A stretch of DNA of 64,000 nucleotides from Candidatus Rokuibacteriota bacterium (GCA_016179965.1 JACPCF010000008.1:9601-73600); one strand, 5' to 3'; counted from the stretch's first letter, positions 1 through 52,867 are shown. Program-made: numbers and translations. Notes: generated by a model from the sequence alone, not told the origin.

Positions 1-624
1 GCCGCATTGAGGGGGCTTCCGGTCGGCGTCGCGGAAGAGGTCTTGCGGCAGGCGCTCGGCCGGCTGGGCGAGCGCCGTCCGCTTCGCTCGTGGGCGCTCG
101 GGGCCCTCGCGCGGTCTATCGCGACGGCATCCCCCGCTCCGATCAGGCTGGGGCGCGTGATGGTCGAGGTGAGCGGGGATCGGCTCAGGCTCTCCCGGGG
201 AACCGCTGAGCTTCTCACGGAAGCCATCCTTCCGGTCCCGGGCTCCGTCGAGGTCCCTGCCGCCTGGCTGAGGCTCGAAGCGCGCGAATTCAACTGTCCA
301 GAATCCTATACACCTCCCACCGACCCGTGGATCGTCGCCTTCGATCGGCAAGGGCTGCCTGGCACGCTGAGCGTGAGGGGGCGCCGCGCGGGGGACCGCT
401 TCCACCCCTTCGGCGCGCCGGGGAGCAAGCGGCTCAAGGCGTTCCTGATCAACGCCAAGATCCCGCGCTGGCGGCGTGACCACCTGCCCCTCCTCCTGGC
501 CGGCGGGGAGATCGCCTGGGTGGTGGGCGTCCGCCGCGGCGCTCTCGCTCCCGTGACCGCGGCCACCCGCCGGATCGTCGAAATCCGGGCGTGCCCCCTT
601 GGCGGCGGCGCGCGGGCGGAGTAA
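1..624 (+). CDS. tilS: tRNA(Ile)-lysidine synthetase, C-terminal portion (5'-truncated by window edge)
   Basis: C-terminal TilS signature ...GDRFHPFGAPGSKRLKAFLINAKIPRWRRDHLPLLLAGGEIAWVVG; ORF runs from window start to TAA at 622-624. Confidence 0.7.
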   Translation, partial: AALRGLPVGVAEEVLRQALGRLGERRPLRSWALGALARSIATASPAPIRLGRVMVEVSGDRLRLSRGTAELLTEAILPVPGSVEVPAAWLRLEAREFNCPESYTPPTDPWIVAFDRQGLPGTLSVRGRRAGDRFHPFGAPGSKRLKAFLINAKIPRWRRDHLPLLLAGGEIAWVVGVRRGALAPVTAATRRIVEIRACPLGGGARAE

Positions 625-2076: not shown

Positions 2077-3480
2077 GTGGCGCTCACGACGGAGAAGGAC
2101 CGACGCCCGGTCGTCCTGACCGTGGACGACGAGCTCGGGGTGCGGGCGGCGATTCGTCAGGTCCTCCAGGACGACTGCGACATCCTCGAGGCGACCGACA
2201 GCCCCTCGGCGCTCGCCCAGCTCCAGTCCCACGACGTGGATCTCGTCCTGCTTGACGTGCGCCTGCCCGGGGAGACCGGTATCGGAATCCTGGAACGGAT
2301 CAAGGCGCTCGAGGAGTCCCTGGAAGTGATCATGGTCACCGCCGTGAACAACGTGCGGACGGCCGTGGAGGCGATCCAGCGGGGGGCCTACGACTACGTC
2401 GTCAAGCCCTTCGACGTGGACGAGATGGAGAACCTGGTCCGCCGCGCCCTCGAGAAGCGCGCGCTCCAGCGCGAGGTGCTCTACCTCCGGTCGGAGCTGG
2501 CCAGCGCCCACGGCTTCGACGAGATCGTCGGGCGCCACCCCGAGATGGTCCGGATCTACGAGCGGGTCGCCCAGGTCGCCGAGACGACGGCCACGGTGCT
2601 GATCATGGGGGAGAGCGGCACAGGCAAGGAGCTCATCGCGCGCGCGATCCACCGCCAGGGCCCCCGGCGCGAGCGGCCGTTCGTCGCCGCCAACCTGGCC
2701 GCGATCCCGGAGCCGCTCCTGGAGTCCGAGCTGTTCGGCCACGAGAAGGGGGCGTTCACCGGGGCCTACCAGAAGAAGCCGGGCAAGTTCGAGCTGGCTC
2801 ACGGCGGGACGCTCTTCCTCGACGAGGTCGGGACGCTCCGCGTGGACCTCCAGGCGAAGCTCCTGCGCGTCCTCCAGGAGCGGGAGATCGAGCGCGTGGG
2901 CGGGACGCGGACCATCAAGGTGGACGTCCGGATCATCGCCGCGACGAACGCGAACCTCAGGCAGGCGGTGAAGGAGCGCGCCTTCCGGGAAGACCTCTTT
3001 TACCGGCTCAACGTGGTCCCGCTGACGGTGCTGCCGCTCCGCGAGCGGCGGGAGGATATCCCGGCGCTCGTCACGCACTTCGTCACGAAGTACAACCGCG
3101 AGTTCGGCAAGGCGATCCGGGGCGTCTCGCCGGGCGTGCTGCCCGTCCTGATGGAGTACGACTGGCCCGGGAACGTCCGCGAGCTGGAAAACATCATCGA
3201 GCGCTCGGTGGCCCTGGCCCGCGGGCTCGTGATCCGCTTGGCGGATCTGCCGCTGGACCTGGCGCTGCCCGAGGCCGCGCCGCGCGGCGAGGAGAAGGGG
3301 CTCACGCTCAAGGAGGCGCGGGAGCGCTTCGAGCGGCAGTTTATCCTGCGCGCCCTGGACCGGGTGGACTGGAACCAGAGCCGGGCGGCGCGCCTCCTGG
3401 GCCTCCACCGCAACACGCTGACGGCCAAGCTGGCCGGCTGGGGGCTTCGCCGCGGCGACGCCGATCAGGCTGCTCTCTAG
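2077..3480 (+). CDS. sigma-54-dependent Fis-family transcriptional activator (REC receiver, AAA+ sigma-54 interaction domain, C-terminal HTH)
   Basis: Receiver domain (VLTVDDE...LLDVRLPG), Walker [15 protein letters not shown] sigma-54 contact motif, C-terminal Fis-type HTH; GTG start inferred because the upstream part of the 931-aa ORF is a non-protein-like GC artefact. Confidence 0.85.
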
Positions 3481-4181
3481 CGGTCCATTCGCGGCTCCAG
3501 GCCCCGCCACAGCAATTCCGCCCACCGGGCATACCCCTGATCCGACGGGTGGTAGCCGTCGGCGGCGATGAGCTCAGGACGCCGCGGCACTTCTCTCCGG
3601 CTCGGCGTGTAGAGATCCACGAGTTCCACGTCGTACATCCGGGCTTGCCGACGCAGCGCCTGGTTGAACAGCGCGACCCGTCGCCCGACCGTGGCGGCCT
3701 CCTCCCCGCCCCTGAAGCGCGGCGTGACCGTGAGATCCGGGATGAGGTTCACCACGAGGACGGCCGTCGTCTCGCGGAGGAGCGTTCGGAAGATCGTCTC
3801 CACGTTGCGCTCGTACGCCCCTGCCTCCCGGCTCCGCGTGATGTCATTCGGCCCGATGGAGAGCGTCACGAGGTCGGGCCGCAGCGCGAGGGCCCGTCCG
3901 AGCTGCCCCTCCACGACGTCCGCAGCGGTGGCGCCGCTCACCCCCAGGTTCATCAGGAGCGCCCCGGGGTACAGCGAGCGAAGGCGCTCGTAGAACCGGC
4001 TCACATAGTTTCGCTCGGGGTCGCTTGCGCCGACTCCATACACGGTGCTGTCGCCGAGGGCCACGTACATCACCGCCGTGCTCCGGTCGCTCGGTAGGCG
4101 ACGGGGAGGCATCACCTGGGCGGACCCGGCGAGGAGCAGCGCGTAGGCCAGCGTGAGGGTGAGGAGGAGCGGATGCTTCAT
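3477..4181 (-). CDS. secreted SGNH/GDSL-family hydrolase
   Basis: Signal peptide followed by a GDS block (YVALGDSTVYG) and a C-terminal DGYH-like block typical of SGNH hydrolases. Confidence 0.7.
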   Translation of the reverse strand: MKHPLLLTLTLAYALLLAGSAQVMPPRRLPSDRSTAVMYVALGDSTVYGVGASDPERNYVSRFYERLRSLYPGALLMNLGVSGATAADVVEGQLGRALALRPDLVTLSIGPNDITRSREAGAYERNVETIFRTLLRETTAVLVVNLIPDLTVTPRFRGGEEAATVGRRVALFNQALRRQARMYDVELVDLYTPSRREVPRRPELIAADGYHPSDQGYARWAELLWRGLEPRMDR

Positions 4182-21600: not shown

Positions 21601-22116
21601 TCAAGTCAGTAGCTTGACGGTTGCGGCAACCGTGAAGGTCACGGCCATCATGGCCAGGGCCGCACCCCAGGCGCTCGATGAGCTTGTAAGTGATCTCTTC
21701 CCGGTGCCGCGGCTCTGCCTTGAACTGGCGGTTGTTTGTGGCTCCCTCCTTTCGGGTCGACACCGCCGGACGGCGTCAGCCATTTCGATGGGGCAGCGCA
21801 CCGCGAGGCCAAACCGGTCCACGGGAAAGCAGGGATCGTAGTCGGGGGAAGAGCGGCGCTTGGGAAGCCGGGCCAGGAGGAGAAGGCCCAGGAAGGTGCA
21901 GAGCCCGGCGAAGAGGATTGTGAGCTCGAAGGCAATTACAACGAAGGGAGGGATCGAGATCACGGGCTTCCCGCCGGTAATCAGGTTCCACTTGAGCGAG
22001 GACCAGATCGTGAACGCGAAGCCGGAGAAGGTCCCAGTGAGTCCCCCAACCAGGGTGAAGAGACGGACTGGGCTGACGGGACGGCCCACCTCCACCGCCT
22101 CCTTGATCTCCTCCAC
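21601..22116 (-). CDS. DUF3341/ActD-like membrane protein; 3' end overlaps a degraded DUF465-gene homologue
   Basis: WNLITGGKPVISIPPFVVIAFELTILFAG...ARLPKRRSSPDYDP pattern resembles ActD-type two-TM proteins; the last ~45 codons of the ORF run through DNA homologous to the DUF465 gene of the antiporter module. Confidence 0.45.
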   Translation of the reverse strand: MEEIKEAVEVGRPVSPVRLFTLVGGLTGTFSGFAFTIWSSLKWNLITGGKPVISIPPFVVIAFELTILFAGLCTFLGLLLLARLPKRRSSPDYDPCFPVDRFGLAVRCPIEMADAVRRCRPERREPQTTASSRQSRGTGKRSLTSSSSAWGAALAMMAVTFTVAATVKLLT

Positions 22117-22261
22117 GGGGACCGGCGAGTACGCGGTGAAGTCGGTGAACCCCCGCGCCCGCAGCTCGCCGATCGCCCGGACAGATTACTGGGATCTCCT
22201 CGTGAGCGATCCTCCGCTTGCTCAGTACCTCGGGGCTCGAGGGTTTGATCTGGAAGTGGAA

Positions 22262-22300
22262 AAACGGGCACGCCCGGTTTGGGCATGCCCGTTTGACGAG
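22262..22300 (-). terminator. rho-independent terminator downstream of the DUF1344 gene (minus strand)
   Basis: On the minus strand AAACGGGCAUGCCC...GGGCGUGCCCGUUUUU: GC-rich hairpin followed by a U5 run, immediately 3' of the stop at 22312. Confidence 0.5.
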
Positions 22301-22311
22301 GGAAGAACCGT

Positions 22312-22566
22312 TTACTGCGAGACCTCAAAGCTCGTGACGATTTTCTTGCCGTCCCGCTCCTCGTAGGTGGCCTTCACGGAAGCCCCCTCCTTCAGGGCGT
22401 CCATTGAGAGGCCCTCGGCCATCCAGAGCTGGGTACCGTCCTCAAGGACGAATATCCGATCGGCGGGATCTACTTTCTGGATCTTCCCCCCGACCTGTCC
22501 AGCCCAGACACCGCCCGCTGAAACGACCAACAGCATCGCCAATGCGACTCCTAAGACCTTCTTCAT
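22312..22566 (-). CDS. DUF1344-like small secreted protein
   Basis: RBS GGAGGA before ATG; signal peptide MKKVLGVALAMLLVVSAGGVWA; about 60-aa mature domain. Confidence 0.6.
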   Translation of the reverse strand: MKKVLGVALAMLLVVSAGGVWAGQVGGKIQKVDPADRIFVLEDGTQLWMAEGLSMDALKEGASVKATYEERDGKKIVTSFEVSQ

Positions 22567-22772
22567 GACGGATCCTCCAGTTTTGGGGTGCAGGTAAGCG
22601 TCGCCGCATGGAGAGCCGGAGCTTCTGCTTCCGGAAACTCTCGCCGCAGGCTTGCCAGCCGACCTTTCCAAACCCTCCTATACCGGCCCTCTCTTACCGG
22701 CTGAAGAAAAATATCCAAACGTAGATGGCGAGCACTACCCCGAACCCCATGACCGTGCCGAGCTGCCCCACC

Positions 22773-23132
22773 CTAGTCACCTCCTGCCCGCGGGAAACCC
22801 CAAGGGCTCTCTCCCCTCGCCCGCAAGCGCCCCCAGCGCCAAGATGAAAGCGCCGCGACCAGCCGAGCGACAGTCTGACCTTGGACGCCTTTATGCGCGC
22901 GGACCCGTGATCGATCGCCAGGACTGACCGGGCCCGGTGGACTCCCCCGCCACCAGCCGTCTATGCGCCGCATGAGGCGCCGGGCTCGGCCGGAGCCCAG
23001 GTGGAGAAGGGCCACCCCAACCAGCAGGGGAAACACACCGGGGAGGTCGGGATGAACGAGCCCGATCGCTCCGACCGTCACCAGGGCCCACCCGAACCAT
23101 CTCCGAAGCCGCCGCCGATTCCTGATAGTCAT
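22773..23132 (-). CDS. small transmembrane protein, PGPGW-family-like
   Basis: Two TM helices flanking a P/G-rich turn (LVHPDLPGVFPLL); weak similarity only. Confidence 0.35.
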   Translation of the reverse strand: MTIRNRRRLRRWFGWALVTVGAIGLVHPDLPGVFPLLVGVALLHLGSGRARRLMRRIDGWWRGSPPGPVSPGDRSRVRAHKGVQGQTVARLVAALSSWRWGRLRARGESPWGFPRAGGD

Positions 23133-23219
23133 CGGCTTCCCTCCTCGATTACCCCAACCGCCACCAGACTCCAGCCGAGCACCTTCCTGGCTACGCCGGT
23201 CATCCTGCCCTCCAAGCTC

Positions 23220-23525
23220 TCACCGGAAGATCCGGAGCATCCCGGAGAGGAAGCCGCCCTCGCCCTCCCCCAGGCGCTCCAGTTCGCCGCAGTCGAGCCA
23301 GATCCCGTCGCAGCGCGAGCACTTGTCGATCTCGACTCCCCGGTAGTGGACCGGCACGAGTTCGCCCCCGCAGCGAGGGCAGAGCATGGCGCCGAGCTTC
23401 GCGATCCGCCGGCGGCTCTCCTCCATCTCTTCCCCCCGTCTGGCCTCCGCCTCCTTCCGCCGCCGCTCGAACTCCATCCGCGCGAAGTACTCTTCCTCCT
23501 GGTTGCTCGGTTTCTGGATTGCCAT
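23220..23525 (-). CDS. zinc-ribbon protein (zf-TFIIB-like CPxCG...CxxCxG)
   Basis: CPRCGGELVPVHYRGVEIDKCSRCDGIWLDCGELE four-Cys ribbon after an acidic, Arg-rich N-terminus. Confidence 0.6.
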   Translation of the reverse strand: MAIQKPSNQEEEYFARMEFERRRKEAEARRGEEMEESRRRIAKLGAMLCPRCGGELVPVHYRGVEIDKCSRCDGIWLDCGELERLGEGEGGFLSGMLRIFR

Positions 23526-23547
23526 CGTCACGCCTCCCTGGCGAAGC

Positions 23548-24888
23548 TCACGACAGCTTCTCACTGCCCGGGTTGGGGACACGCCCCACGGCCTCCCCCC
23601 AAGAGAGCCCCCCGATCCGGAGCTTCAGCAGACCGAAGAACCCCCGCCGGCTCTCCCGGCTCGCTACCAGGAAGAGGACCGAAAACACGAGGTACGAGTA
23701 GGCGAACAGGTAGCCCGCGGCGAACGCGAACCCGGGGAGCGATGCGAACAGCTGGGGGAACATTTGAGGGAGCAACTGGGTGAGGAGCTGGGTTGAGAAG
23801 AGCAAGAAGAGAAGCGTCCCCTCTCTGAGCGAGAGCGAGAAAGAAGCCAGCACCACGACCCCCAGGAGGGACTGGGCCGCGGTGAGGAAGATCTCCTTGA
23901 CCTGCACCGCGTCGAGCGGCATCGCCCCAATTTGGGCTGTGGAGAGGCTGTAGGCCAGGGGCAGTGCCCCTACCAGGAGCGTCCACTGGTTCACCTTGGA
24001 GGACAGGAGGATCCCCATGCCCGCCGCAGCGCTTCCGCGGAGGACGAACAGGGTCGCAACAATGAACTCGGGGGACTCGGAGGCCAGGGGCGCGAGCCAC
24101 TGGATCAGGAGGTACTCCGGGACCTGCAGGATCTTTCCTGTGGCGATCAGGGACTCAGCGAAGGGCTCCGCCGCCACGAGGATCGTAAGCCCGGAGAAGA
24201 GGAACATGACGACGGTGGTCGCCCGTCTCAACGGGATGGGAAGCCGTCGGATGAGCACGGGTGGCCCCACGAGGTGCGGATCCTCCACCGGCTGGCGCGT
24301 GACCGCTCGGAGGTAGAACCCGACGAGGGCGAGGAGCACCACCGAGTCCACCAGCGACAAGGTGCCTTTGAGGGGGATCAAAAAGGAGTAGCCGGTGGCG
24401 AGCAGTAGGTAGCGTAGCTCGATGCCGTGGGCCGGCTCCAGCTGAATCTCCGTCTGCCTCCGCCGGCTCTTAAGCCACAGAACGAAGACAAGCGCGGCCC
24501 AGCCGACCCCGATCAGGAGGCGGTTGGCTCCCGTCATATTGGCCGTGGCGTAGCCGACGTAGGCGGGATCCTTTCCGGCCTGCCAGGCCAGGTAGAGGTC
24601 TACGGCGTACTCGGGGAGGACGGCGATGATGGCCAACGCCGCGATGGCCAGGCTCCGCGGGATGTCCAGCTGGGCCAGCTCGGCTGCCCAGGAGAGGATG
24701 AACGCCGCGCCGAGAATGCCTGCCCCCGAAGAGAGGGCCTCGAGGGCGGACGGGAGGTGGGCCCCGCTCCACCGGACCAGGAGCCACTGGAGCGCCAGCC
24801 CAAACGTGGAGATAAGCCAGATCGCGTGCCCGGTCGTCCCATTACCTCGACCTGCCGCTCCAGCTGCCGTCATGGCATCGAAGCCCAT
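23548..24888 (-). CDS. CaCA-superfamily (Na+/Ca2+ exchanger-like) membrane transporter, divergent
   Basis: 10-11 TM segments with two alpha-repeat-like motifs (VLPEYAVDL and [17 protein letters not shown]); start codon uncertain (24888 or 24873). Confidence 0.55.
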
Positions 24889-25270
24889 CCTTTCCACGAG
24901 GATCGGAGGACGACAAAAAAAGGCCGGCAGAACGCCCCCTACGAGGCATCCCGCCGGCCTGTGCTCCAACTGGCCCTTCCCGGGAGGGAAGTGCCCTCTG
25001 GCGAACCCGCCGTGCGTCTAAACTACTTCAACCTTAGTGGGAGTCGTCCCCCTTGTCAAGGGCTCGTGGCCCACCCAGGACTTTTCGCCGCGCTTGGCCG
25101 CGTGATGCGCCTCGTTGACTTTCCTTCACAGTCCAGAAGATACTGAGGCCGTGGCGACAAGCAGTCCGGAACCGATAGCCCCCGCACCGGCCTGCGCGGA
25201 TCTGCTCTTGATAGAGACCTCAAGCTAGGCGCGGCTCCACAGTTCTCACCCGCAGCCTCGGCGCTCGACG

Positions 25271-25648
25271 ATGGCCGGAAAGACCAAGGGACAGGTCGAA
25301 GCGGAAATCAGCCAGACCCTGGTGAAGTTCGAGCTGGAGTACATGGGCCGAGGCCCTAGCGACGTCCGGACCCATCTCCTGGGGGACATGGTTGTGGTAC
25401 GGCTCAAGGGGATCCTCACCCCGGCGGAGCGGCAGCTCGTCAAGGCCGAGGGCGTAGAGCTGATCAAGCAGGTCAGGGCCAAGCTGCTTGAGACGGGGCG
25501 GTCCGTGCTGAAGCAGCGGGTGGAGCGGATCACCGGCCTCTCTGTCGTGAGCATGCACTCCGATCTCAGCACCACGACGGGAGAGCGGGTCATTCTCTTC
25601 GTCATGAGCGAGAACGTGGAAGAGAAGTTCGCGGGCCTCAGAAGATAA
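25271..25648 (+). CDS. DUF2294 (MpsC-like) protein, paralogue 1
   Basis: 125 aa; conserved with 25831-26196 and 28101-28478 (FELEYMGRGP... / LTPRS.EVR...G..L). Confidence 0.7.
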   Translation: MAGKTKGQVEAEISQTLVKFELEYMGRGPSDVRTHLLGDMVVVRLKGILTPAERQLVKAEGVELIKQVRAKLLETGRSVLKQRVERITGLSVVSMHSDLSTTTGERVILFVMSENVEEKFAGLRR

Positions 25649-25658
25649 ACGGCGTCGG

Positions 25659-25688
25659 CTTGACAGCAGGAGGTCGCCCCGGGTAGAT
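25659..25688 (+). promoter_or_regulatory. sigma-70-like promoter (TTGACA, 18 bp, TAGATT)
   Basis: Consensus -35 and good -10 located after the stop of DUF2294-1 and about 70 nt upstream of a strong terminator. Confidence 0.4.
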
Positions 25689-25754
25689 TGACTCAGAATC
25701 TGACGGCAGACTAGCCAGAAGGCACTTCCCTCTGGAGGGGCCGGCTGGAGCGTA

Positions 25755-25795
25755 GGCCGGGGGAGACTGGCAGAGGTCTCCCCCGGCCTTTTTAT
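25755..25795 (+). terminator. rho-independent terminator (GGCCGGGGGAGAC, loop, GUCUCCCCCGGCC, then UUUUUAUU)
   Basis: 13-bp perfect GC-rich stem, 8-nt loop and T-run. Confidence 0.6.
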
Positions 25796-25830
25796 TGTCC
25801 GGGTCCGAACCAGGAAGGGAGGGATCACCC

Positions 25831-26196
25831 ATGGAGCGGCAAGAGATGGAGCGACGCCTTGCCGAGCTGACACAGGGGTTCTTCCGGGCCAAGCTGCGCC
25901 TGACCCCTCGGTCGATGGAGGTCCGGGAGGAGGGCGACGCGCTGGTTCTCAGGGTCAACGGGTTCGTCGCCCCGGCTGAGAGGGCGATGATTGACCACCC
26001 CAAGGATCGGTGGGCGATTGAGGACTACTACCTCCGCCTGTTCGATCAGCTCACGCCTCTGCTGAGAGCTGGGGTCGGAAAAGCCGGTCCCCTCGTCAAG
26101 GTGCAGACGTTTCTCGATCTTTCAAGTGATGAATACCGCTGTATTTTGACCTTGGCGAGGCAAGGCGAGGTGATGTGGGCGGATTCTCGCGAATAA
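25831..26196 (+). CDS. DUF2294 (MpsC-like) protein, paralogue 2
   Basis: RBS GGAAGGGAGGGA before ATG; about 60% identical to paralogue 3 over the N-terminal 100 aa. Confidence 0.7.
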   Translation: MERQEMERRLAELTQGFFRAKLRLTPRSMEVREEGDALVLRVNGFVAPAERAMIDHPKDRWAIEDYYLRLFDQLTPLLRAGVGKAGPLVKVQTFLDLSSDEYRCILTLARQGEVMWADSRE

Positions 26197-26209
26197 GGAG
26201 GGAGCAGGG

Positions 26210-26455
26210 ATGTGGCCATTTGGGAAAATCGCCTGCGGGGTCTGTGGTGAGCGCTTTTCGAAGGGCGAGCTGAAGCTCTCACTTCGCGAAAGAAGCGTCG
26301 CGGTCTGCCGCCACTGTTTCGAGGGCTGGTGGATGCGGGGCCGGAAATGCGACCGGTGCGGGGAGCAGGTGACAGGGACTCAGGCCGTCGCGGTCTTCCC
26401 CGAGCACCGGAGCCTCGGGCACTTCGACTGCGGCGGGGTCCCCCTGAGCGCATAA
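26210..26455 (+). CDS. small Cys-rich zinc-finger protein (candidate anti-sigma factor or sigma-associated regulator)
   Basis: RBS AAGGAGGGAG; 81 aa with CGVCG...CRHC...CDRCG...C, i.e. at least two CxxC pairs; sits immediately upstream of the sigma-70 gene. Confidence 0.55.
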   Translation: MWPFGKIACGVCGERFSKGELKLSLRERSVAVCRHCFEGWWMRGRKCDRCGEQVTGTQAVAVFPEHRSLGHFDCGGVPLSA

Positions 26456-26592
26456 CCTCCGCCGGGCGCAGGACCGACTTCGAATAATGGGAATGGGGCC
26501 GATCCCTCCCGCTCCTACGAAGCGCGAAGCCGACTCATGAAGCGGCTGGGAGAGCTTCAACACGCCCTCCACCAGCTGAGACGTGCCGTATC

Positions 26593-28047
26593 ATGACCTT
26601 CAGCGAGCTTGTCCATCCCCGTCCGCAAGGCGTGAGCCTGGAGCCGGTTGAGCCCGCCGACCGGACCGTGGTCTGGGACGAGGAGCCTGTGGGCCACGGC
26701 GACGCCCCCCCGTCGCTCCCTTCCGCTCCCCAAGACCTCGTGCGCACCTACCTGAGGGAAATCGGAAACCGCCCCCTGCTGACGGCGGCCCAGGAAGTGG
26801 AGATCTGCCGTCGGCTCGAGAGCGCCCAAGCGGAACTCCGGCGAGCGCTCGCCGCAATCCCGCTGGCTGTCCAGAAACTCATCGACCGTGCCGACAGCGC
26901 GCGGAAGCACGCCACCCCGCTGGATGAGCTGATCCTTCTTCCCGACGGGAGGGAACCCAAACGGGAGGAGGTCAAGCGGATCCTCGCCGCATTTGCCCGG
27001 ATCAAGCGGCTTGAGCGGGAGATCGAAAAGCTCCGGGCTGACCTCAAAGACCGGCGTCGCTCGGCGTCGACCCGCGCGAGCTATCGCGGCCTGATCGCTC
27101 GGCGCCGCGCGGCCATTCAACAGGTAGTGGCTGGCCTTCCCATCAAGCCGGCCCTCGTGGACGAGCTGGCCGCAGAGGTCCAGCGCCTGAACGACGAGAT
27201 CCAAAAGCTCTCGGCGGGCTCCACGGTTCGGCGGCGGGGGCAGCAGCTCCGCGCTCTGGAGGCCAAGATCGGGCTCCCCCGCCAGCAGCTCCAGGGGCTT
27301 CTGGCGATCATCGCCGAAAAGCAGGGGGGCGTGCGTGAGGAGAAGGGCGAGCTGGTCGAGGCGAACCTGAGGCTGGTGGTCTCGGTGGCCAAGCGATACC
27401 AGAGGAGTGACCTGTCGCTCCTGGACCTCATCCAGGAAGGCAACATCGGGCTCATGAAAGCGGTGGGCCGATTCCAGTACCGCCGCGGGTTCAAGTTCTC
27501 GACCTACGCCACCTGGTGGATCCGGCAGGCCATCACCCGCGCGATCGCAGACCAGTCCCGGACCATCCGCATCCCCGTTCACATGGGTGAGGTCCTGCAC
27601 CAGCTCTCACGGCTGCACCGGTCCCTCATGAACGAGTTGGGGCGCGAGCCCACGCTCGAGGAACTCACCCGCCGAATGGGCATTCCTGACAAGAAGGTCC
27701 AGCTTATTCTGACGTCTTCGCGGATCCCGGTATCGCTGGAGAAACCGGTCGGCGAGGACTCCCAGCTCAAAGATTTTCTCCAGGACACGCAGACCGTCTC
27801 GCCCGAGAGCGAGCTCTTCGGCCGGGACTTGAGCCGGCAGGTGAAGCGGGCGCTGTCCACGCTTTCTGATAGGGAGCGGGAGATTCTCCGTCTCCGCTTC
27901 GGGATCGGGCGGGAAGGCGAACACACCTTGGACGAAGTCGGCCGTCACTTCTCGGTGACCCGGGAGCGGATCCGCCAGATCGAGGCCAACGCCTTCCAGA
28001 AGCTCCGGCTCCGGAAGGCAAGCCTCAGGGTGCTGATCAAGAGCTAG
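26593..28047 (+). CDS. RNA polymerase sigma-70 factor, RpoD-like (regions 1.2, 2, 3, 4)
   Basis: Region 2 [34 protein letters not shown] and [30 protein letters not shown] match RpoD better than RpoS; region 4 HTH at the C-terminus. Confidence 0.9.
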
Positions 28048-28100
28048 CCGGAGGCATTCGCTATCTCTTGTCCGTGTCGTGATCCAGGGAGGGCCCGCCC

Positions 28101-28478
28101 ATGGAGCGCCAACAGGTAAGGGAGCGAATCCGCGAGCTGACGCTGGCGTTCTTTCAAGCCAAGCTGGGCCTGACCCCTCGGTCGGTGGAGGTCCGGGGCG
28201 GGGGAGACACGCTCGAGGTCAGGGTCAGGGGGTTTTTCGCGCCGGCAGAGAAGGCGCTGATTGACCACCCCAAGGAGCGACGGGCCATCGAGGACTACTA
28301 CCTCCGGCTGTTTGATCAGCTCCTTCCTCTCTTGAACGCCGGGGTCGGAAAGGCCGGCCCCATTGTCAGGGTCCAGACTCTTCTCGATCTTCGGGGCAAT
28401 GAATGCGTGTTCATGGTGCCCCTGGGGAAGGAAAGCGAAGTAATTATCCAGAATCCTGCGGAGGCCGAGCGGGAGTAA
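28101..28478 (+). CDS. DUF2294 (MpsC-like) protein, paralogue 3
   Basis: Strong similarity to 25831-26196 (LTPRSVEVR, FAPAEKALIDHPKERRAIEDYYLRLFDQL). Confidence 0.7.
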   Translation: MERQQVRERIRELTLAFFQAKLGLTPRSVEVRGGGDTLEVRVRGFFAPAEKALIDHPKERRAIEDYYLRLFDQLLPLLNAGVGKAGPIVRVQTLLDLRGNECVFMVPLGKESEVIIQNPAEAERE

Positions 28479-28984
28479 GCAGCAGCGGCGCGGGAAATAA
28501 GGAGATCGGGGGAGCGATCCAGCGACGAGACGACTCGGAGCGAATGGGACTCTGCGCCAGCAAACGTTACGACGACAAGCGCTGACTATTAGCGTCTTTG
28601 CGAGGAGGAGGCGGCGATGTGGAAATGGGTAGGCGTGACGATCACGGCCACGGCGGTAGCGGCGATGACCCTCGGCTGCTCTCAGCAGCCGTCAGGGACG
28701 GCAGCGGTGATCGAGGACAAGATCTACACGGTGACGCCGGCCTCGGTGAAGGTGAAGGCCGGGATTCTCGCGGGCGAGGTCACGGAGATGAGAGTCACGG
28801 AGCGGGTCGAGAAAGGCTCCGGCCGCGTCGTTTCCCCGGCGAAGCTCACGGGGACGCTCAAGCTGAAGAATAGCTCTAAGGATCAGGCCGTCCGCCTTGT
28901 TGGGGGAAAGATCCAGTACATCGATGCCCAGGGGCAACCGATCAAGCTCGAGGAGACACGGACCGAGCCGACTATTAAGAGCCT

Positions 28985-29170
28985 CTAACAAAATGAGCCT
29001 GCAGGATTCAGGTAATTCCAGCAGATGAGGGAGCACCCGAGAGACAGAAACGCTTCATGAATCTCTGGACGGCGTTCGTAGCGAACACGCAGGCGACGGA
29101 ATTGGTGCAGCCACGCGAGGGTCCGTTCCACCACCCATCGATAGACACCGAGCAGGTTGCCCAGACTCAT
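28985..29170 (-). pseudogene. IS5/IS4-family (DDE_Tnp_1) transposase C-terminal fragment
   Basis: RWVVERTLAWLHQFRRLRVRYERRPEIHEAFLSLGCSLICWNYL is the conserved C-terminal block of IS5-family transposases; the N-terminal ~250 aa are absent. Confidence 0.6.
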
Positions 29171-29193
29171 AACGCTGGATGCTAGCCGTCTCG

Positions 29194-30198
29194 TCAGTGG
29201 CCTGGTGCGCCCAGGGTCGCCACAACCACTGCGCCCACCAAGTAGATGGACGCCATCAGCACCAGGCCAGTCGCAGCCACCAGGCTATGGAGCCGGTTGC
29301 GCCCCAGTATCAGCCCCAGCCCCAGCAAAATCAGGGCGATGGCTACCCCTCCGGCGACGAAGTGGGCGGGCTCGGTCTGATTGGTGAGGATACCGTCGCG
29401 ATAGAAGAGGTCGGCGTAGAACAGGATAGTGACATTGAAAGCGCAGCTACCGTACAGGCAACTGACCGCCAGGTCCACAGCCCCCATGCGGGCGGCGGCG
29501 ATGGTCGATGACGCCTCCGGCATGGTGGTCACCAGGGAGACGGCCAGGATGCCCAGGGTGCTGGAGGCCACGCCCGTGATCTCGGCAATCTGGTCGCTAC
29601 TCCAGGCCAAGAAGAATCCGGCCACTATCACCCCTGCGGAGACCAGGGCAAACATCAACGAGGCCCGCTGCAGGGTCATGGCCGGCTCGTCTCCTTGCTC
29701 CTCATCATTCTGGGGGCGAGTCACGTACACTAGCCGCATTGCCACTACATACAGCACCAGGAGGATCACCGAGGATAGCCCGATGTTCCACAGGGAGACC
29801 TCCATCTTTACCGCGCCGAACATCACGGCTGCTCCGGTCATGATGGCTGCGGACACAATCAGATAGCCCTGCTCCGGCGCTACCCGCTGCAAGAAGCGCT
29901 TGCCACCGAACGCCAGGGCCACCATAGACAGGGTGAGCATGTTGAGCATGTTGGCCCCCAGCACGTTGGCCACCGCCAGCTCCGGGTTGGGCGGACTAAG
30001 CCGCACCGCAGAGATGTTGGTCGCCAGCTCTGGTAGGGATGTGGCTAAAGCCAGCAGGACGGTGCCCACGAAGAGACGGCCCCAGCCGGTCAGGGCGGCC
30101 AGGGCGTCGCTGTATTTGGCGAGCTGGGTGCCAAAGAAAATAACTGACGCAGCGCTGGCCAGGAATATCAATACTGCTATTGCCAGGTCACCACTCAT
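29194..30198 (-). CDS. CaCA-family Na+/Ca2+ exchanger-like membrane protein (YrbG-type), apparently intact cargo gene
   Basis: RBS GAGGT before ATG; 10 TM segments with two alpha-repeats (GTSLPELATNISA and MPEASSTIAAA). Confidence 0.8.
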   Translation of the reverse strand: MSGDLAIAVLIFLASAASVIFFGTQLAKYSDALAALTGWGRLFVGTVLLALATSLPELATNISAVRLSPPNPELAVANVLGANMLNMLTLSMVALAFGGKRFLQRVAPEQGYLIVSAAIMTGAAVMFGAVKMEVSLWNIGLSSVILLVLYVVAMRLVYVTRPQNDEEQGDEPAMTLQRASLMFALVSAGVIVAGFFLAWSSDQIAEITGVASSTLGILAVSLVTTMPEASSTIAAARMGAVDLAVSCLYGSCAFNVTILFYADLFYRDGILTNQTEPAHFVAGGVAIALILLGLGLILGRNRLHSLVAATGLVLMASIYLVGAVVVATLGAPGH

Positions 30199-30330
30199 TC
30201 ACGGATACCTCATCAGTTGCTGGGCCCAGTCGACTTCTCCGGCCTCACGCGCGTGATGCCGGCGCTCTGGCCCGCTCCATTCCTCCCCGGCCAGCTTGGC
30301 GGCCAGCCAGACGATGACCAGCCCGCGGAG
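30199..30330 (-). pseudogene. remnant of the KefB-like antiporter 5' end (N-terminal ~20 codons plus upstream DUF465-gene fragment to 30500)
   Basis: LVIVWLAAKLAGE matches the N-terminus of the 20427-21575 protein; 30380-30500 is homologous to the DUF465 gene (…IARTDNRQFKARLRHDEQIIQGLIEKL). Confidence 0.5.
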
Positions 30331-30581
30331 CTCCGCCATCGTCCCTGGTGTGAAGGATCCCACCGGTAAATTCAGGGGGAGCCGAGCTTCTCGATGAGCC
30401 CTTGAATGATCTGTTCGTCGTGCCTCAGTCGCGCCTTGAATTGACGGTTGTCGGTCCTGGCGATCTCCATGCGGAGATCGCTCAGTGCGCATTTCGGTCG
30501 TCGTGAACACCCCGATCGCTCCATCATGAACGCTCAGATCGGCGCATGGTGATCGGAGCGCAGCGACGCTGGGCGGTTCAG

Positions 30582-31195
30582 TCAGTCGTCGAGCTTGGCC
30601 TCCTTTCTCCGTGAGGGTCCTTTTAGCACAAGTCGGTGGGCGTTGTGAAGGAGGCGGTCGCAGATCGCATCGGCCAGGGTGGCGTCGGCCAGGTAGTTAT
30701 GCCACTGGGCCGGCGGGAGCTGGCTGGTGATGATGGTCGAGCGAGTGCCATAGCGATCCTCGAGGATCTCGAGCAGGTCGCGGCGCTCCGGGTCCTGCAC
30801 GGGGGCGAGGCCCCAGTCGTCGATCACGAGGACGTCGAGGCGGGCGAGCTTGCCGAGCAGGCGGATGTAGGTGCCATCGGCGCGGGCCAGGGTGAGCTCG
30901 TGGAAGAGGCGAGAGGCGCGGCGGTAGCCGGCGCGATAGCCCTTGCGGCACGCCTGATGTGCCAGGGCACACGCGATGAAGCTCTTCCCGACGCCGGTGG
31001 CGCCGACCAGGATCACGTTGTGGTGCTCAGCGACCCAGCGGCAGGTGGCGAGCTGGCGGACGACGGCCTTGTCGAGCTCGCGCCGGGCCGGGTAGTCGAT
31101 CGCCTCGAGACACGCCTGCGAGAGCTTGGCCTCCTGGAGGGCGCGGACCAGGCGCTTGGCCCGATGCGCCCGGGGATCTGCCCAAAGAGGCTCTG
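30582..31195 (-). pseudogene. IS21-family IstB helper ATPase, N-terminally truncated fragment
   Basis: Walker A LVGATGVGKS, Walker B DVLVIDDWG, C-terminal LLHNAHRLVLKG; upstream frame shows ...LVRALQEAKLSQACLEAIDYPARRELDKA matching IstB region 2; about 45 N-terminal residues missing. Confidence 0.7.
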
Positions 31196-31867
31196 TGTCA
31201 AGTGGCTTTCAGCAAGCTGGAGGATGAAGTACCGGGCATGCCGGATCAGGCGCCCACCGGTCTTGAACACCCGCTGCTGTAGGCTCGTTAGTGACCAGCT
31301 CTGAATGGCAGGGGGCAGGACAAGCCGACGCCAAAAACCTTGCTCATTTTGTTAGAGGCTCTAAGTTTCCCACGTACGGCGCCGAGCGGCTCGACCCTGG
31401 GCAGGATGCGACCCAGTCCGTGGACGTGGACTTCCCCGCCGAAGCCCTGAAGGTGAAGAAGCTGAAGGAGATCCGCCTCGAGCTCACGTACATCCCGTCA
31501 CCGTACAAGGAGGAGACGGTCAACTTCACCGTGTCGATCAGCGGCCAGTAAGTCGGGGAGGTGGCTTCCCCCGCAGTCACCTCCGAGAAATCAAGCGTAA
31601 TGTGGGCGGACTCTTCCTAACAAGGAGGCCGGGCGCGGAAAAATGAAAACAACTGGTGGGCAGGGACAGTATTGAACCGCCGCCATCAGGATTTTCAAAT
31701 ACTTGATCCCCATCGCTTGTCTCAGCGAGATGAATGGAAACCCACCAAATTGAGCCCGGGAAGTGAAACCCTTCCACACTACACTCAACAATTCGCCAGT
31801 CGAGGCGGCATTGCTCTGCGACGACGCTGGGTATTGCGGCCACCGAAGGTCGAGACCATGATCATCG

Positions 31868-32100
31868 TGACCAGCGCGGAGTAGAGCTCTTGTTCGACCA
31901 CGCGGTTGGCAAGGCCGATGCCCGCGAAGATCAACCTCACCTCGCCGCGCGGGATCATGCCCACGCCGACTCGCCCAAGACGGCGGTCTGGCCGACGCGC
32001 TCCATCGCCTCGCCGGCCAACTTGGCCGCGAGCCAGACGATCACCAGGCTGAGCAGGAGCTCGCCGAGTCCCACCTCTCCAGCTTACTTTATCCGGCTCC
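31868..32100 (-). pseudogene. third, internally deleted copy of the KefB-like antiporter (C-terminal ~30 codons fused to N-terminal ~35 codons plus native upstream region)
   Basis: 31868-31965 is homologous to 20480-20600 (…ANRVVEQELYSALVTMIMV). 31966-32100 is homologous to 21470-21600 including the start codon and the leader; about 870 bp of the gene is missing. Confidence 0.55.
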
Positions 32101-32120
32101 TGTGTTGGTAGCCCGGAACT

Positions 32121-32315
32121 TCATGCGGAATCCGTCGTCACGGAAGCCGAGCTCAGGCGCTCGATGAGTTTACGAGCAATCTCTTCATCGCGCTTTAGCT
32201 GCGCCTTAAACGTGCGGCTGTCCGTCCGGGCGATCTCGCGGTCGAGATCGGCCAGGTATCTCTTCAGCGTTTCCCGCAGGAACTCATGCTCTTCTCGAGT
32301 CAGCGTGAGCGTCAT
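32121..32315 (-). CDS. DUF465 (YdcH-like) small protein, intact copy
   Basis: 64 aa, LADLDREIARTDSRTFKAQLKRDEEIARKLIERL resembles the YdcH/DUF465 pattern; degraded homologues sit upstream of both other antiporter copies. Confidence 0.55.
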   Translation of the reverse strand: MTLTLTREEHEFLRETLKRYLADLDREIARTDSRTFKAQLKRDEEIARKLIERLSSASVTTDSA

Positions 32316-32336
32316 CGGGTTTCTCCTTTCGGAAGG

Positions 32337-32435
32337 CGTTCCTCAAGGCAGGAGCTTGATGAGTGCCGCGATCCCGAAGATGACTGCCATCATGGCGAGG
32401 GCGACAAGGAGACCCGAGTATTTCCTCTCTTTCTC
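32337..32435 (-). CDS. 32-aa single-TM micro-protein (MQEKERKYSGLLVALAMMAVIFGIAALIKLLP)
   Basis: Short ORF conserved with the sequence ...WGAALAMMAVTFTVAATVKLLT* at 21601-21670; below ORF-track length cutoff. Confidence 0.3.
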
Positions 32436-32848
32436 TTGCATAGCAATCCTCCGTCACAGACTTCGAGTGTAAAATGAGCGAAACCGGTGGATCAGAAGGG
32501 CCGGACGGAGGTCAGGCGTCTTCGGTGGCGTTCCGCGGAGATAGGTCGGATGAGGGGTCCCGGCGCGGGAGAAGCGCGATGCGATTGGAAAGATTCACAT
32601 TCATTCGGAGATCGACCGAGGCCTGCAAGGTAAGTCGTGGCAGGTCGATGGCCAGGCGGAGTGGCTCCACCCGCGGCGGCGGCGCGAGCTCCTGCCCCTG
32701 GACGGGCTGGACCCTGAGTGCGACCACTGACTCGTCGGGGTTGAAACGGAATGCCCCTGCCGAAGGGACCGCCAGGTCCATCACGACGTGGGCCAGAACG
32801 AACAGGATGAAGAGCCGCTTCACGCCTCCTATAATACGTTAATCGGCC

Positions 32849-33523
32849 ATGGTCGAGCCAGCCCCCTTCGTCTTCTTCGGGTGCATCGAGCTGAGGGAGA
32901 TTCTCGGCCTGCGAGCCCGGGACGAGCGGGAACTGATGGAGCTCCTGGAGCGCGCCCCGCTCGGATCGGTCTACTACCACACCCACAGCGTCTTCCTGCG
33001 CCACCACCAGATTACGGGCGCCTATCCGAATGACTTCGCCAACTGGGTGGCCTCGCAGGTGCGGGACCAGGTGCTCGGCGAGCGCCTGGCCGTCGTGGAC
33101 CCGTTCGCCTTCCCCAGTCTGGAGGCCCTGCGGGAGGAACTCGTGTCCATCATCGATCACCACATCGCGGCCCTGCATCCGGTGCCCCGGGTCGTCTTCG
33201 GGGATCCGTTCTTCTTCGTCCAGTCGCACGTGATCGAGGTGCCCACCGGCCTGGAGGCGTGTACCCTCGGCGAGTTTCGCCGGTGCCTCGCGGAAGTGGA
33301 TGCCAGCTCGATCTACTTTCACGCGCTGGAATCCAGGGTTCGGCGCGGGCACCCCCATGGGGATTTCGCCGACTGGATCGGGCAGGCGCTGGGGCTCCAG
33401 TCCCAGGCGGAGGAGATCGCGCGGATCAATCCCTACCTGGGGGGCCTGGAGGAGATCCGCGCCCGGATGCTCCGGCTCCTCGACGCTGCGCTGGGAGGGG
33501 AGGCCCCCGCCGGTGGCGGCTAG
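32849..33523 (+). CDS. hypothetical protein translationally coupled to treT
   Basis: 224-aa protein-like ORF whose stop overlaps the treT GTG start by 11 nt; no family assigned. Confidence 0.5.
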   Translation: MVEPAPFVFFGCIELREILGLRARDERELMELLERAPLGSVYYHTHSVFLRHHQITGAYPNDFANWVASQVRDQVLGERLAVVDPFAFPSLEALREELVSIIDHHIAALHPVPRVVFGDPFFFVQSHVIEVPTGLEACTLGEFRRCLAEVDASSIYFHALESRVRRGHPHGDFADWIGQALGLQSQAEEIARINPYLGGLEEIRARMLRLLDAALGGEAPAGGG

Positions 33524-34721
33524 CGCGCTCACCATCGAGGCCTACCGGGAGGTGGCCCCGAGAGGGACGATCGACTTCCTCCTCCGCCTCGCCGAACGGG
33601 CGCGCGGGCGGCGCTTCCTCCACGTGAACTCGACGCGCTTCGGCGGGGGCGTGGCCGAAATCCTCAGCCGGCTCGTGCCCATCATGGGGGACCTCGGGAT
33701 CAAGGCGGACTGGGAGGTCATGGAGGGTGATTCGGAGTTCTTCGCCACCACCAAGGCCTTCCATAACGCGCTCCAGGGCACCGAGCAGGTGGTCACCGAG
33801 GCAATGCTGGAGCATTATCTCGAGGTCAACCGGGTCAACGCCGAGCGCCTCAGGCCGGCGGCCGATCTGGTGCTGATCCATGACCCCCAGCCGGCGGCGA
33901 TGATCGAGTCCCGCCCGCCGGAGGGGAAGTGGGTCTGGCGCTGTCACATCGATCTCTCCCTCCCTCAGCGCCGCGCCTGGGCGTTTCTGCGAAGGTACGT
34001 GATCCGCTACGACGCGGCCGTGTTCTCCCTCCCGGCCTTCGCCCAGCAACTGCCGATCCCCCAGTTCCTCGTCTATCCCTCCATCGACCCGCTGGCGGAA
34101 AAGAACCGCCGGATGACCAGGAACGAGATCGCGAAGATCCTCGGCGCCCTCCAGATCCCGGACGACAAGCCGATCCTCCTCCAGGTCTCGCGCTTCGATC
34201 GCTTCAAGGATCCGATCGGCGTCATCAACGCCTACCGGATGGTCAAGCGCTACCACGATGTCCGGCTGGTGCTGGCGGGGGGCGGCGCCACGGACGACCC
34301 TGAGGGGGCGCAGGTGCTCGCCGAGGCGCGCGAGGCCGCCGGCCGCGATCCCGACATCTACGTGCTCGACCTGCCGTCCAACGCCCACCTCCAGATCAAC
34401 GCCCTCCAGCGCGCTGCCGCGATCGTCATCCAGAAGTCCACGCGGGAGGGGTTCGGCCTGACGGTGGCCGAGGCGATGTGGAAGGGCAAGCCCGTCGTCG
34501 GGGGAGCGACGGGAGGCCTCACGGTGCAGATCCTCTACGGGGTCACAGGGTACACCGTCAACTCCGTGGAAGGCGCCGCCTACCGGATCCGGTATCTCCT
34601 GAGCAACCCGGCCCTCATGCGGAAGATGGGGGAGGCCGGGCGCGAGCACGTGCGGCGGAATTTCCTCATCACTCGGCACCTCCGGGATTACCTCTCCCTC
34701 CTGGTCCACCTCACCGCCTGA
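33513..34721 (+). CDS. treT: trehalose glycosyltransferring synthase TreT (GT4 family)
   Basis: Collinear with archaeal and bacterial TreT: HVNSTRFGGGVAEIL, FHNALQG, WRCHIDLS, LQVSRFD, EGFGLTVAEAMWKGKPV. Confidence 0.9.
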   Translation: MAASALTIEAYREVAPRGTIDFLLRLAERARGRRFLHVNSTRFGGGVAEILSRLVPIMGDLGIKADWEVMEGDSEFFATTKAFHNALQGTEQVVTEAMLEHYLEVNRVNAERLRPAADLVLIHDPQPAAMIESRPPEGKWVWRCHIDLSLPQRRAWAFLRRYVIRYDAAVFSLPAFAQQLPIPQFLVYPSIDPLAEKNRRMTRNEIAKILGALQIPDDKPILLQVSRFDRFKDPIGVINAYRMVKRYHDVRLVLAGGGATDDPEGAQVLAEAREAAGRDPDIYVLDLPSNAHLQINALQRAAAIVIQKSTREGFGLTVAEAMWKGKPVVGGATGGLTVQILYGVTGYTVNSVEGAAYRIRYLLSNPALMRKMGEAGREHVRRNFLITRHLRDYLSLLVHLTA

Positions 34722-52204: not shown

Positions 52205-52867
52205 TTACCCCCGTCGCCCCGTCACGGCCAGAAAGGTGGCCAGCCCGGGCGTCCACCGGGCCCCTGCTGTTTCCCAGCCTCGAAGATACCGCACCCCGCG
52301 ACGGCGGGAAACGGGCAAGAAGTGGACCGCCCCGCGCCACCGGAGATCGCGGAATCCCCCCTCCTCCAGCAGCCGCCTCAGGTCTCCGAGGCCCAGAAAG
52401 GCCGCGTGCCGCCAGACGGATCGGACGAAGTGTCGCTTCAGGCGGCGCCAGAGGGTCCAGAGCCCGGTCCGATTCAGGATCGCGACAAGGTCGAAGGCAC
52501 CTGCCCGGAAGGGCAGCGCGCCTCCGTCCGCTCGGACTAGCGCGAGGGCGATTCCCCCGCGCCGGGCCTTGGCGCGGGCGACCCGGAGCATCGGCTCGGA
52601 GACGTCCACGCCCACCACCCTGAAGCCCCGCTGGGCCAGCGCCAGGGCGTAGTTCCCCGTGCCGCAGGAGAGGTCGAGAGCCAGCGCGCCCGGCCTGGGC
52701 TCCAGCAGGGTGAAGATGGCGTTCTTCTCCGGCTGATCGACGAGCCGGCCGACGGGCGTCTCGTACCACAGGTCGTACGACGAGGCAAGCGCGTCGAACG
52801 CCGCAGCCGGCTCTGGACCCGGCTCGGCCCTACCACCCCCTTCCCGCGGGCTTCGTTCGGCCCTCAA
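52205..52867 (-). CDS. class I SAM-dependent methyltransferase (start uncertain)
   Basis: Motif I LDLSCGTGNYALALA, post-I VGVDVSEPML; the only in-frame start candidates downstream of the small upstream ORF are TTG/CTG. Confidence 0.55.
   Translation of the reverse strand: MRAERSPREGGGRAEPGPEPAAAFDALASSYDLWYETPVGRLVDQPEKNAIFTLLEPRPGALALDLSCGTGNYALALAQRGFRVVGVDVSEPMLRVARAKARRGGIALALVRADGGALPFRAGAFDLVAILNRTGLWTLWRRLKRHFVRSVWRHAAFLGLGDLRRLLEEGGFRDLRWRGAVHFLPVSRRRGVRYLRGWETAGARWTPGLATFLAVTGRRG

Follow-up and report, generated by a model that had tools for sequence, protein, structure and literature searches.

A covarying RNA element found beside DUF2294 genes in several bacterial phyla is probably a cis-acting transcription attenuator

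Between two DUF2294 genes of a Candidatus Rokuibacteriota bacterium, a promoter and a strong terminator enclose a short stretch of DNA without an ORF. The initial annotation of this locus left two readings, either a free-standing small RNA (sRNA) or an attenuator in the leader of the genes behind it, and we asked which of the two the locus and its relatives support. Throughout, the window denotes the whole stretch of DNA analysed (64,000 nt), and A-type denotes canonical DUF2294 proteins scoring at least 140 bits. The genes around the locus are these:

23548-24888, minus strand: Na_Ca_ex-family membrane protein gene (PF01699; ATG 24888 with Shine-Dalgarno GGAAAGG, or GTG 24897)
25271-25648, plus strand: DUF2294-1, canonical A-type, MpsC family (PF10057, E = 2e-37; 166 bits to the A-type HMM)
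25831-26196, plus strand: DUF2294-2, B-type (Pfam)
26210-26455, plus strand: zinc-ribbon protein (Pfam)
26593-28047, plus strand: sigma-70-family factor, RpoD/RpoS-like (Pfam, NCBIfam; below every equivalog cut-off)
28101-28478, plus strand: DUF2294-3, B-type (Pfam)

As first proposed, the gene after the terminator begins at ATG 25831, which has a Shine-Dalgarno sequence (GGAAGGGAGGG) at 25813-25823; the in-frame TTG at 25795 was rejected as an over-extension through the terminator. TTG 24969 on the minus strand was likewise rejected as a spurious start of the Na_Ca_ex gene, where the longest ORF would cross a terminator. A consensus scan of 25800-28000 found no further promoter-like or terminator-like site, and we infer that DUF2294-2, the zinc-ribbon gene, the sigma factor gene and DUF2294-3 form one operon reached by read-through from the unit upstream. 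DUF2294-1 has a promoter-like site of its own (TTGACT-18-GATACT, 25115-25144), and its 5' untranslated region of ~125 nt gave no match to our covariance models or to Rfam. Its protein is 100% identical to an NCBI entry labelled Candidatus Rokubacteria (Methylomirabilota). No tRNA or tmRNA genes were found. The part of the window that contains the DUF2294/sigma cluster (22000-34000) has a G+C content of 0.62-0.65 compared with ~0.70 in its flanks, and an ORF at 28985-29170 (minus strand) looks by eye like the C-terminal part of an IS5-type transposase (RWVVERTLAWLHQFRRLRVRYE); this stretch may be an island gained by horizontal transfer.

The unit between DUF2294-1 and DUF2294-2, copy 1, is made up of the following elements, with the helices named from the consensus fold described below:

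25660-25689, plus strand: promoter (-35 TTGACA 25660-25665, 18-nt spacer, -10 TAGATT 25684-25689)
25698-25765, plus strand: conserved RNA fold (covariance model scores of 85.4 bits with R1 and 75.1 bits with R2)
25704-25707/25756-25759, plus strand: helix P1
25710-25711/25752-25753, plus strand: helix P1a
25715-25718/25745-25748, plus strand: helix P2
25721-25723/25740-25742, plus strand: helix P3
25725-25729/25734-25738, plus strand: hairpin P4
25754-25797, plus strand: intrinsic terminator (stem 25754-25789, U-tract 25790-25797)

The promoter is sigma-70-like, matches the consensus at 10 of 12 positions in the scan and starts 12 nt past the DUF2294-1 stop (25648). The near-consensus TTGACA-18-TAGATT of the initial annotation was thus confirmed, with its coordinates moved one base to the right. 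Two promoter-like sites were found in 24000-28000 compared with 0.3 expected from shuffles, and the promoter position is kept in six related loci (L081, L082, L086, L001, L092 and L093), which carry TTGACA-17/18-TAnnnT at equal distance. The predicted transcription start lies at ~25696-25697. After ~65 nt follows the strong terminator, in which we find a stem of 15 pairs (11 G-C) with a 6-nt loop and then TTTTATTG, in place of the 13-bp stem and 8-nt loop noted before. The stem runs directly into the U-tract TTTTTATT, its hairpin energy is about -32.5 kcal/mol, and 33 nt separate the U-tract from the DUF2294-2 ATG. The smaller hairpin that had been noted ahead of the terminator is also real (25725-25738), its arms being CUUCC/GGAGG and not CCCUC/GAGGG. 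Across the complete 111-nt unit, the predicted fold was better than in 200 of 200 shuffles (z = -3.6).

A second, paralogous copy, absent from the initial annotation, lies on the minus strand at ~25059-24914 and shares 76% identity with copy 1 over 103 nt (blastn, E = 6e-11):

25059-25031, minus strand: promoter, read from the sequence (-35 TTGACA 25059-25054, 17-nt spacer, -10 TAAGGT 25036-25031)
25018-24949, minus strand: conserved RNA fold (86.2 bits with R1, 72.9 bits with R2; P1 25012-25009/24958-24955)
24960-24914, minus strand: intrinsic terminator (18-bp stem 24960-24921, U-tract 24920-24914, T7)

This promoter is back-to-back with the promoter-like site of DUF2294-1 and falls below the scan threshold because its -10 box matches at just 3 of 6 positions; its pattern (TTGACA-16/17-TAnnnT) is kept in L081, L082, L084 and L085. 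The terminator hairpin (-35.5 kcal/mol) ends 25 nt before the Na_Ca_ex ATG at 24888. In both copies, a G+C-rich hairpin is followed immediately by a U-tract, as is characteristic of intrinsic (Rho-independent) terminators. DUF2294-1 is therefore flanked by two units facing outward or downstream, in each of which a promoter and ~65 nt of conserved RNA lead into a terminator, followed by a Shine-Dalgarno sequence and a gene. Elsewhere in the window, weak covariance model matches at 52685, 55720 and 34027 (all minus strand) and 4112 (plus strand), with E values of ~1-2.5, were taken as noise.

Is the RNA between promoter and terminator conserved? A starting structure was obtained with RNAalifold on 12 copies from close relatives, using an independent MAFFT alignment, and covariance models R1, R2 and R3 were built over three search rounds with two refinements, the search set being the window plus 160 loci fetched by DUF2294-1 homology. 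R2 matched 124 times at E < 0.01 in this set, and R3 adds ~20 matches. Motif-bearing loci come from Methylomirabilota, Planctomycetota, Omnitrophota, Elusimicrobiota, Aerophobetes, Spirochaetota, Desulfobacterota and Clostridia. The labels of their metagenome-assembled genomes (MAGs) include, within Planctomycetota, Planctomycetaceae, Isosphaeraceae, Pirellulales, Phycisphaerae and the anammox genera Scalindua and Anammoxibacter, and further Methylomirabilia, Omnitrophota, Elusimicrobiota/Endomicrobiales and Deltaproteobacteria/Desulfobacterota. From the outside in, the fold consists of P1, a 2-bp P1a, P2, P3 and the P4 hairpin. Among 118 distinct sequences, 87% of cells were in standard pairs, 16 of the 18 pairs showed compensatory double changes, and the covariation score was 0.441 compared with 0.192 for column shuffles (0 of 500 reached 0.441), all of these counts being somewhat inflated because the sequences had been aligned by fitting them to the model. 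When registers were slid by 1-3 columns, scores reached at most 0.12, and both this control and the first RNAalifold result agree with the covariation of the model-fitted alignment. Secondary structure is thus conserved with covariation, as in riboswitches and cis-regulatory attenuators, and the conservation of the hairpins in relatives' intergenic regions, which had been suggested as a check, holds in more than 100 loci.

Conservation reaches at least 96% at ten positions (GG..GA...G...UA.GCC) within a family consensus of nGGnnGAcunR-P2-...-P2'-nnRagUARGCCRR. P1 is short, 3-6 bp, and covaries mainly at one position (C-G 66, U-A 13, U-G 5). A K-turn or sarcin-ricin reading of the conserved loops was rejected, as on inspection the P1-P1a loop is 3x3 and symmetric, and the 'GU' of AGUA shows Watson-Crick covariation. 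In the closest relatives (L081, 2380-2680; L082/L083, 3495-3800), which share 85-88% protein identity with the window, the DUF2294-2 ORF is internally deleted or truncated, and the RNA, the terminator and the zinc-ribbon gene are retained. Two other loci (L087, 1128-1198, and L088, 1350-1420, both minus strand) carry a 62-bit motif copy without a U-tract and with a convergent gene directly after it, which looks like what is left of a unit whose Na_Ca_ex gene was lost.

The RNA matches no catalogued family. None of the 4227 covariance models of Rfam 15 reached its gathering threshold anywhere in the window, and a permissive scan of 25400-26100 (E <= 10) gave at most 20.6 bits against thresholds of 37-100; its mir-*, dinG and ar14 matches were dismissed as low-scoring hairpin resemblance to the terminator. 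Scanning 40 related loci returned tRNAs only, and a permissive scan of a four-copy array in locus L062 gave nothing near threshold. The Rfam search proposed as a check on the initial annotation therefore produced no known family, an outcome that points to an undescribed RNA family and not to the absence of an RNA. We found no description of the motif among papers on DUF2294, on the target genes or on orphan riboswitches for these phyla; a search for DUF2294 by name returned one unrelated paper, and a yjbJ/csbD-related motif (PMC11109978) is different, being a two-hairpin RNA. IMG/VR phage contigs had no match for two specific motif patterns. What appears to be new is the RNA family with its partner gene family and its regulon; the type of mechanism, terminator/anti-terminator competition over one strand of P1, is classical.

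How the fold could act is suggested by its overlap with the terminator. A T-run follows the motif in 120 of 124 matches, and in nearly all 124 the terminator hairpin begins at the GCC of the P1 3' strand, which reads GCCG in the window and GCC(G/A)AC across the family. In copy 1, this strand (25756-25759) is the base of the terminator's 5' arm; part of the aptamer thus competes with the terminator, as in an expression platform. Computed for the nascent RNAs of the window, up to the terminator loop, the minimum free energy structure is the consensus fold including P1 (-29.4 and -36.2 kcal/mol); for copy 1, nascent RNA 25697-25762 gives exactly this fold at -29.4 kcal/mol. The full-length RNAs favour the complete terminator (-56.0 and -61.1 kcal/mol), and with P1 enforced they are 9-10 kcal/mol less stable and lack 5-6 pairs beside the U-tract. 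As P1 is conserved yet incompatible with the terminator, it makes sense only if it acts during transcription.

Together, these data suggest a model in which RNA polymerase would start ~7 nt past the -10 box and make a ~60-nt rod in which a purine-rich 3x3 internal loop separates P1 from P1a and a second internal loop separates P1a from P2, with a variable P3/P4 hairpin at the far end. The P1 3' strand would double as the lowest part of the 5' arm in a highly stable terminator. By default, the terminator would win, an RNA of ~100 nt would be released and the downstream genes would stay off. If the P1-closed fold were held, the terminator would lose 5-6 pairs by the U-tract, allowing read-through into DUF2294-2, the zinc-ribbon gene and the sigma factor gene from the plus-strand copy and into the Na_Ca_ex-family gene from the minus-strand copy. 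The predicted direction of the switch is therefore ON, with P1 stabilisation leading to read-through.

Action in cis is consistent with the position of the motif. Of 109 first downstream genes that could be scored, 97 are co-oriented and 12 convergent. Relatedness among the sequences and the usual preference of neighbouring genes for one strand inflate the first figure, and some of the convergent cases stem from miscalled ORFs in high-GC DNA. Across the family, the U-tract often lies 4-50 nt from the start codon. As this gap is small, and in copy 1 holds a Shine-Dalgarno sequence only, there is no room for a separate downstream promoter; the motif thus occupies a leader position before a co-oriented gene that, judged from spacing, appears to be promoterless. 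Promoter-like sites were detected upstream of the motif in 36 of 124 windows compared with 9 in reverse-complement controls, and nearly all first units of non-planctomycete loci have TTGACA-16..18-TAnnnT ending 8-26 nt before P1. In L062, a Ca. Anammoxibacter MAG, four motif-terminator units with a ~129-nt period stand behind a single promoter (TTGACT-17-TATGAT; 3290-3830, minus strand), and two or three complete units in series occur in L029, L034, L076, L079, L080, L089 and L090. None of the second and later units of these tandem arrays has a promoter-like site. Units placed behind a strong terminator would be useless unless termination were conditional, which argues for an attenuator and against a free sRNA.

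The genes directly behind the terminator were tallied on 88 non-redundant ORFs. Divergent DUF2294 paralogues (MpsC) are the commonest family (20 of 88), followed by GTP-type phosphoenolpyruvate carboxykinase (PEPCK; 10 of 88). DUF3309, Na_Ca_ex, PAS sensors and Radical SAM each account for three of the 88, CsbD, SulP, Ice-binding-like proteins and SAICAR synthase for two each, and BON/OsmY-like proteins and transaldolase for one each; individual scans of downstream ORFs add YflT-domain proteins and one DksA/TraR zinc-finger protein. In several Omnitrophota PEPCK loci (L168-L172), the genes for PEPCK and SAICAR synthase (purC) are adjacent and co-oriented. A CO2/bicarbonate theme, prompted by PEPCK, a gamma-carbonic-anhydrase-like gene, SulP, purC and the name MpsC, was not adopted, because purC is listed among the targets as a passenger of the PEPCK operon, MpsC lies outside MpsAB function, and the planctomycete targets are general-stress genes.

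We next considered which gene the motif accompanies. Among 128 A-type DUF2294 genes with complete flanks, the motif lies shortly after 38 on the same strand and divergently upstream of 38, giving 68 with either or both; for about 35-45% of A-type genes, no motif could be detected close by. The motif was never the leader of an A-type gene itself (0 of 128), and it leads 21 of 37 B-type paralogues. As all 160 loci were chosen through DUF2294, this association is biased by construction, and 11 distinct loci were therefore fetched through PEPCK as a control. Only one of these (L165) contains an A-type DUF2294 (172 bits), and it alone contains a strong motif (41.9 bits); among the ten PEPCK loci without A-type DUF2294, none has a strong match and nine have none at all. 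In L161/L162 (2800-2990), where PEPCK has no DUF2294 within 3 kb, a promoter (TTGACT-16-TATAGA) is followed by the 5' half of the motif (UUGGAAGACU) with a diverged 3' half (14 bits), which could be a decaying copy or a variant class. In this small control with one positive and in the biased main sample, the motif follows DUF2294-A and not the target gene. Because it tracks an unregulated A-type gene while its targets are heterogeneous, the pattern is that of a regulator with its operator; with the same limits of a small control and a biased main sample, a regulator gene is genomically coupled to an RNA element, as for HutP and PyrR. A-type proteins are 50-60% identical across phyla, with R27, R44, K66, R69 and H96 invariant, paralleling the near-invariant RNA loops.

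The protein family offers little prior guidance. The predicted fold of DUF2294-A contains no RNA-binding fold and so does not place it among known RNA-binding antiterminators, and DUF2294 has no sequence relative in the PDB. The Pfam name of DUF2294/MpsC, "Na+-translocating membrane potential-generating system", has no experimental support: deletion of mpsC in S. aureus gave no phenotype, and outside staphylococci the gene is not linked to mpsAB (PMC6689103). The name should therefore not guide interpretation.

Several explanations could account for a promoter, a folded RNA and a terminator at this site. That the hairpin merely terminates DUF2294-1 and the promoter match arose by chance would fit the position of the unit in the 3' region of this gene and the number of terminator-like matches under a loose definition in this G+C-rich region (3 found, 2.8 expected), but the 60 nt between promoter and terminator covary across many phyla, the promoter position is conserved among relatives, and the second copy lies on the opposite strand with no upstream gene to terminate; we give this explanation almost no weight. 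A trans-acting sRNA gene of ~100 nt in two paralogous copies, whose product would pair with mRNAs or sequester a protein, possibly DUF2294, with the downstream genes transcribed independently, would agree with the strong terminator and with the conserved sigma-70-like promoter that directly precedes the motif, both in the window and in most first units outside planctomycete loci. Other bacteria have multi-copy and tandem sRNA genes, and the terminated product would accumulate in the default state and could also act in trans. Against such a gene stand the gaps to the next start codon, which at 33 and 25 nt, and elsewhere often <40 nt, are too short for a promoter, the later tandem units, which lack promoters and would be silent unless termination is conditional, the conservation of a P1 that is incompatible with the terminator in the finished RNA, and the predominant co-orientation of downstream genes (97 of 109). 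Despite its own promoter and terminator, the unit is thus probably not an independent transcription unit with separately transcribed neighbours, and we regard an sRNA gene as improbable. Of the two readings in the initial annotation, the free-standing sRNA is accordingly disfavoured by the lack of room for a downstream promoter and by the promoterless array units, whereas control of DUF2294-2, the zinc-ribbon gene and the sigma factor by attenuation gains support from the fold, the overlap of P1 with the terminator, the absence of a downstream promoter and co-orientation. Judged from the sequences compared here, both copies are probably cis-acting transcription attenuators of an uncatalogued, widespread RNA family.

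An attenuator mechanism, which seems likely on this comparative evidence, is common to two readings that differ in the effector alone. In one, the element would be a true riboswitch whose rod-shaped aptamer directly binds a small molecule or ion, reporting a stress, energy, carbon or ionic signal, so that P1 is stabilised and the genes are switched on, and DUF2294 genes would simply be the commonest members of its regulon. The anatomy is indeed like that of an ON riboswitch: in a compact aptamer, internal loops hold ~20 conserved nucleotides, the distal hairpin varies and P1 lies inside the terminator. Tandem units occur, as in some riboswitch classes, B-type DUF2294 is found downstream more often than any other gene, and DUF2294-A is without an RNA-binding fold. 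However, the constant feature is a neighbouring, unregulated A-type DUF2294 gene and the regulated genes are very heterogeneous, PEPCK carries the motif only where DUF2294-A precedes it (1 of 1 with it, 0 of 10 strong matches without), and the gene set points to no coherent ligand. Direct ligand binding remains a serious contender at somewhat less than even chances. In the other reading, the adjacent A-type DUF2294 protein would itself be the effector, an RNA-binding antiterminator; we favour this slightly over a small ligand, though tentatively, as it too falls short of an even chance. The genomic coupling of gene and motif and the parallel conservation of protein and RNA loops speak for it, and the A-type genes with no motif close by speak against it. 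The wider proposal, that A-type DUF2294 proteins are a new family of RNA-binding, possibly ligand-gated, antiterminators with this RNA as their cognate operator in a portable cassette, is likewise rather less likely than not.

Known systems offer parallels to both readings. Two ON riboswitches with rod-like aptamers and coupled terminators, those for Na+ (DUF1646 motif) and Li+ (nhaA-I motif) (PMC9337991, PMC9646797), also have a short hairpin-type aptamer with conserved internal loops, an aptamer 3' side that overlaps an intrinsic terminator so that stabilising the fold leads to read-through, and physiologically diverse controlled genes. In contrast to our motif, they are not known to lie tightly adjacent to one unregulated family such as A-type DUF2294, and neither Rfam family was matched in the window or 40 loci, even at E <= 10. 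The hutP-terminator-hut and pyrR-attenuator-pyrP arrangements of Bacillus similarly combine a small regulator-sized gene, a terminator-bearing intergenic RNA and controlled genes, with extra copies of the RNA element before other targets and an element that travels with the protein gene and not with the targets. Unlike these, the RNA described here has its own promoter and is often divergent from the protein gene, and the predicted DUF2294 fold resembles neither HutP, PyrR, TRAP nor the BglG/ANTAR families, so that its RNA-binding role is putative. Complete units in series, as in L062 and the seven other arrays, are known from tandem riboswitch and attenuator systems, whereas the window holds single units on opposite strands; four complete aptamer-terminator units in a row are unusually many. 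The sRNA genes OxyS/oxyR, GcvB/gcvA and LhrC1-4 share with our units an own promoter, a strong terminator, a length of ~100 nt, paralogous copies and a conserved adjacent partner gene, but differ in that here there is no room for a downstream promoter, array units are promoterless and P1 competes with the terminator.

Overall, the element would extend the known bacterial attenuators and orphan riboswitch candidates by a widespread RNA class with good structural support, present in at least eight phyla, most of them poorly studied, including Planctomycetota with their anammox bacteria. If the proposal for A-type DUF2294 is true, a cassette of protein gene, promoter, RNA fold and terminator has been placed in many phyla ahead of general-stress genes, of genes for ion exchangers and PEPCK and of one for an alternative sigma factor. 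The element gives a first functional handle on DUF2294/MpsC, a large family, and the hypothesis lends itself to a direct in vitro test that needs a single RNA and a single protein of 125 residues. For the organisms concerned, our findings suggest that an alternative sigma factor, general-stress proteins (CsbD, YflT, BON, DUF3309) and the gluconeogenic PEPCK may be gated at the level of transcription elongation.
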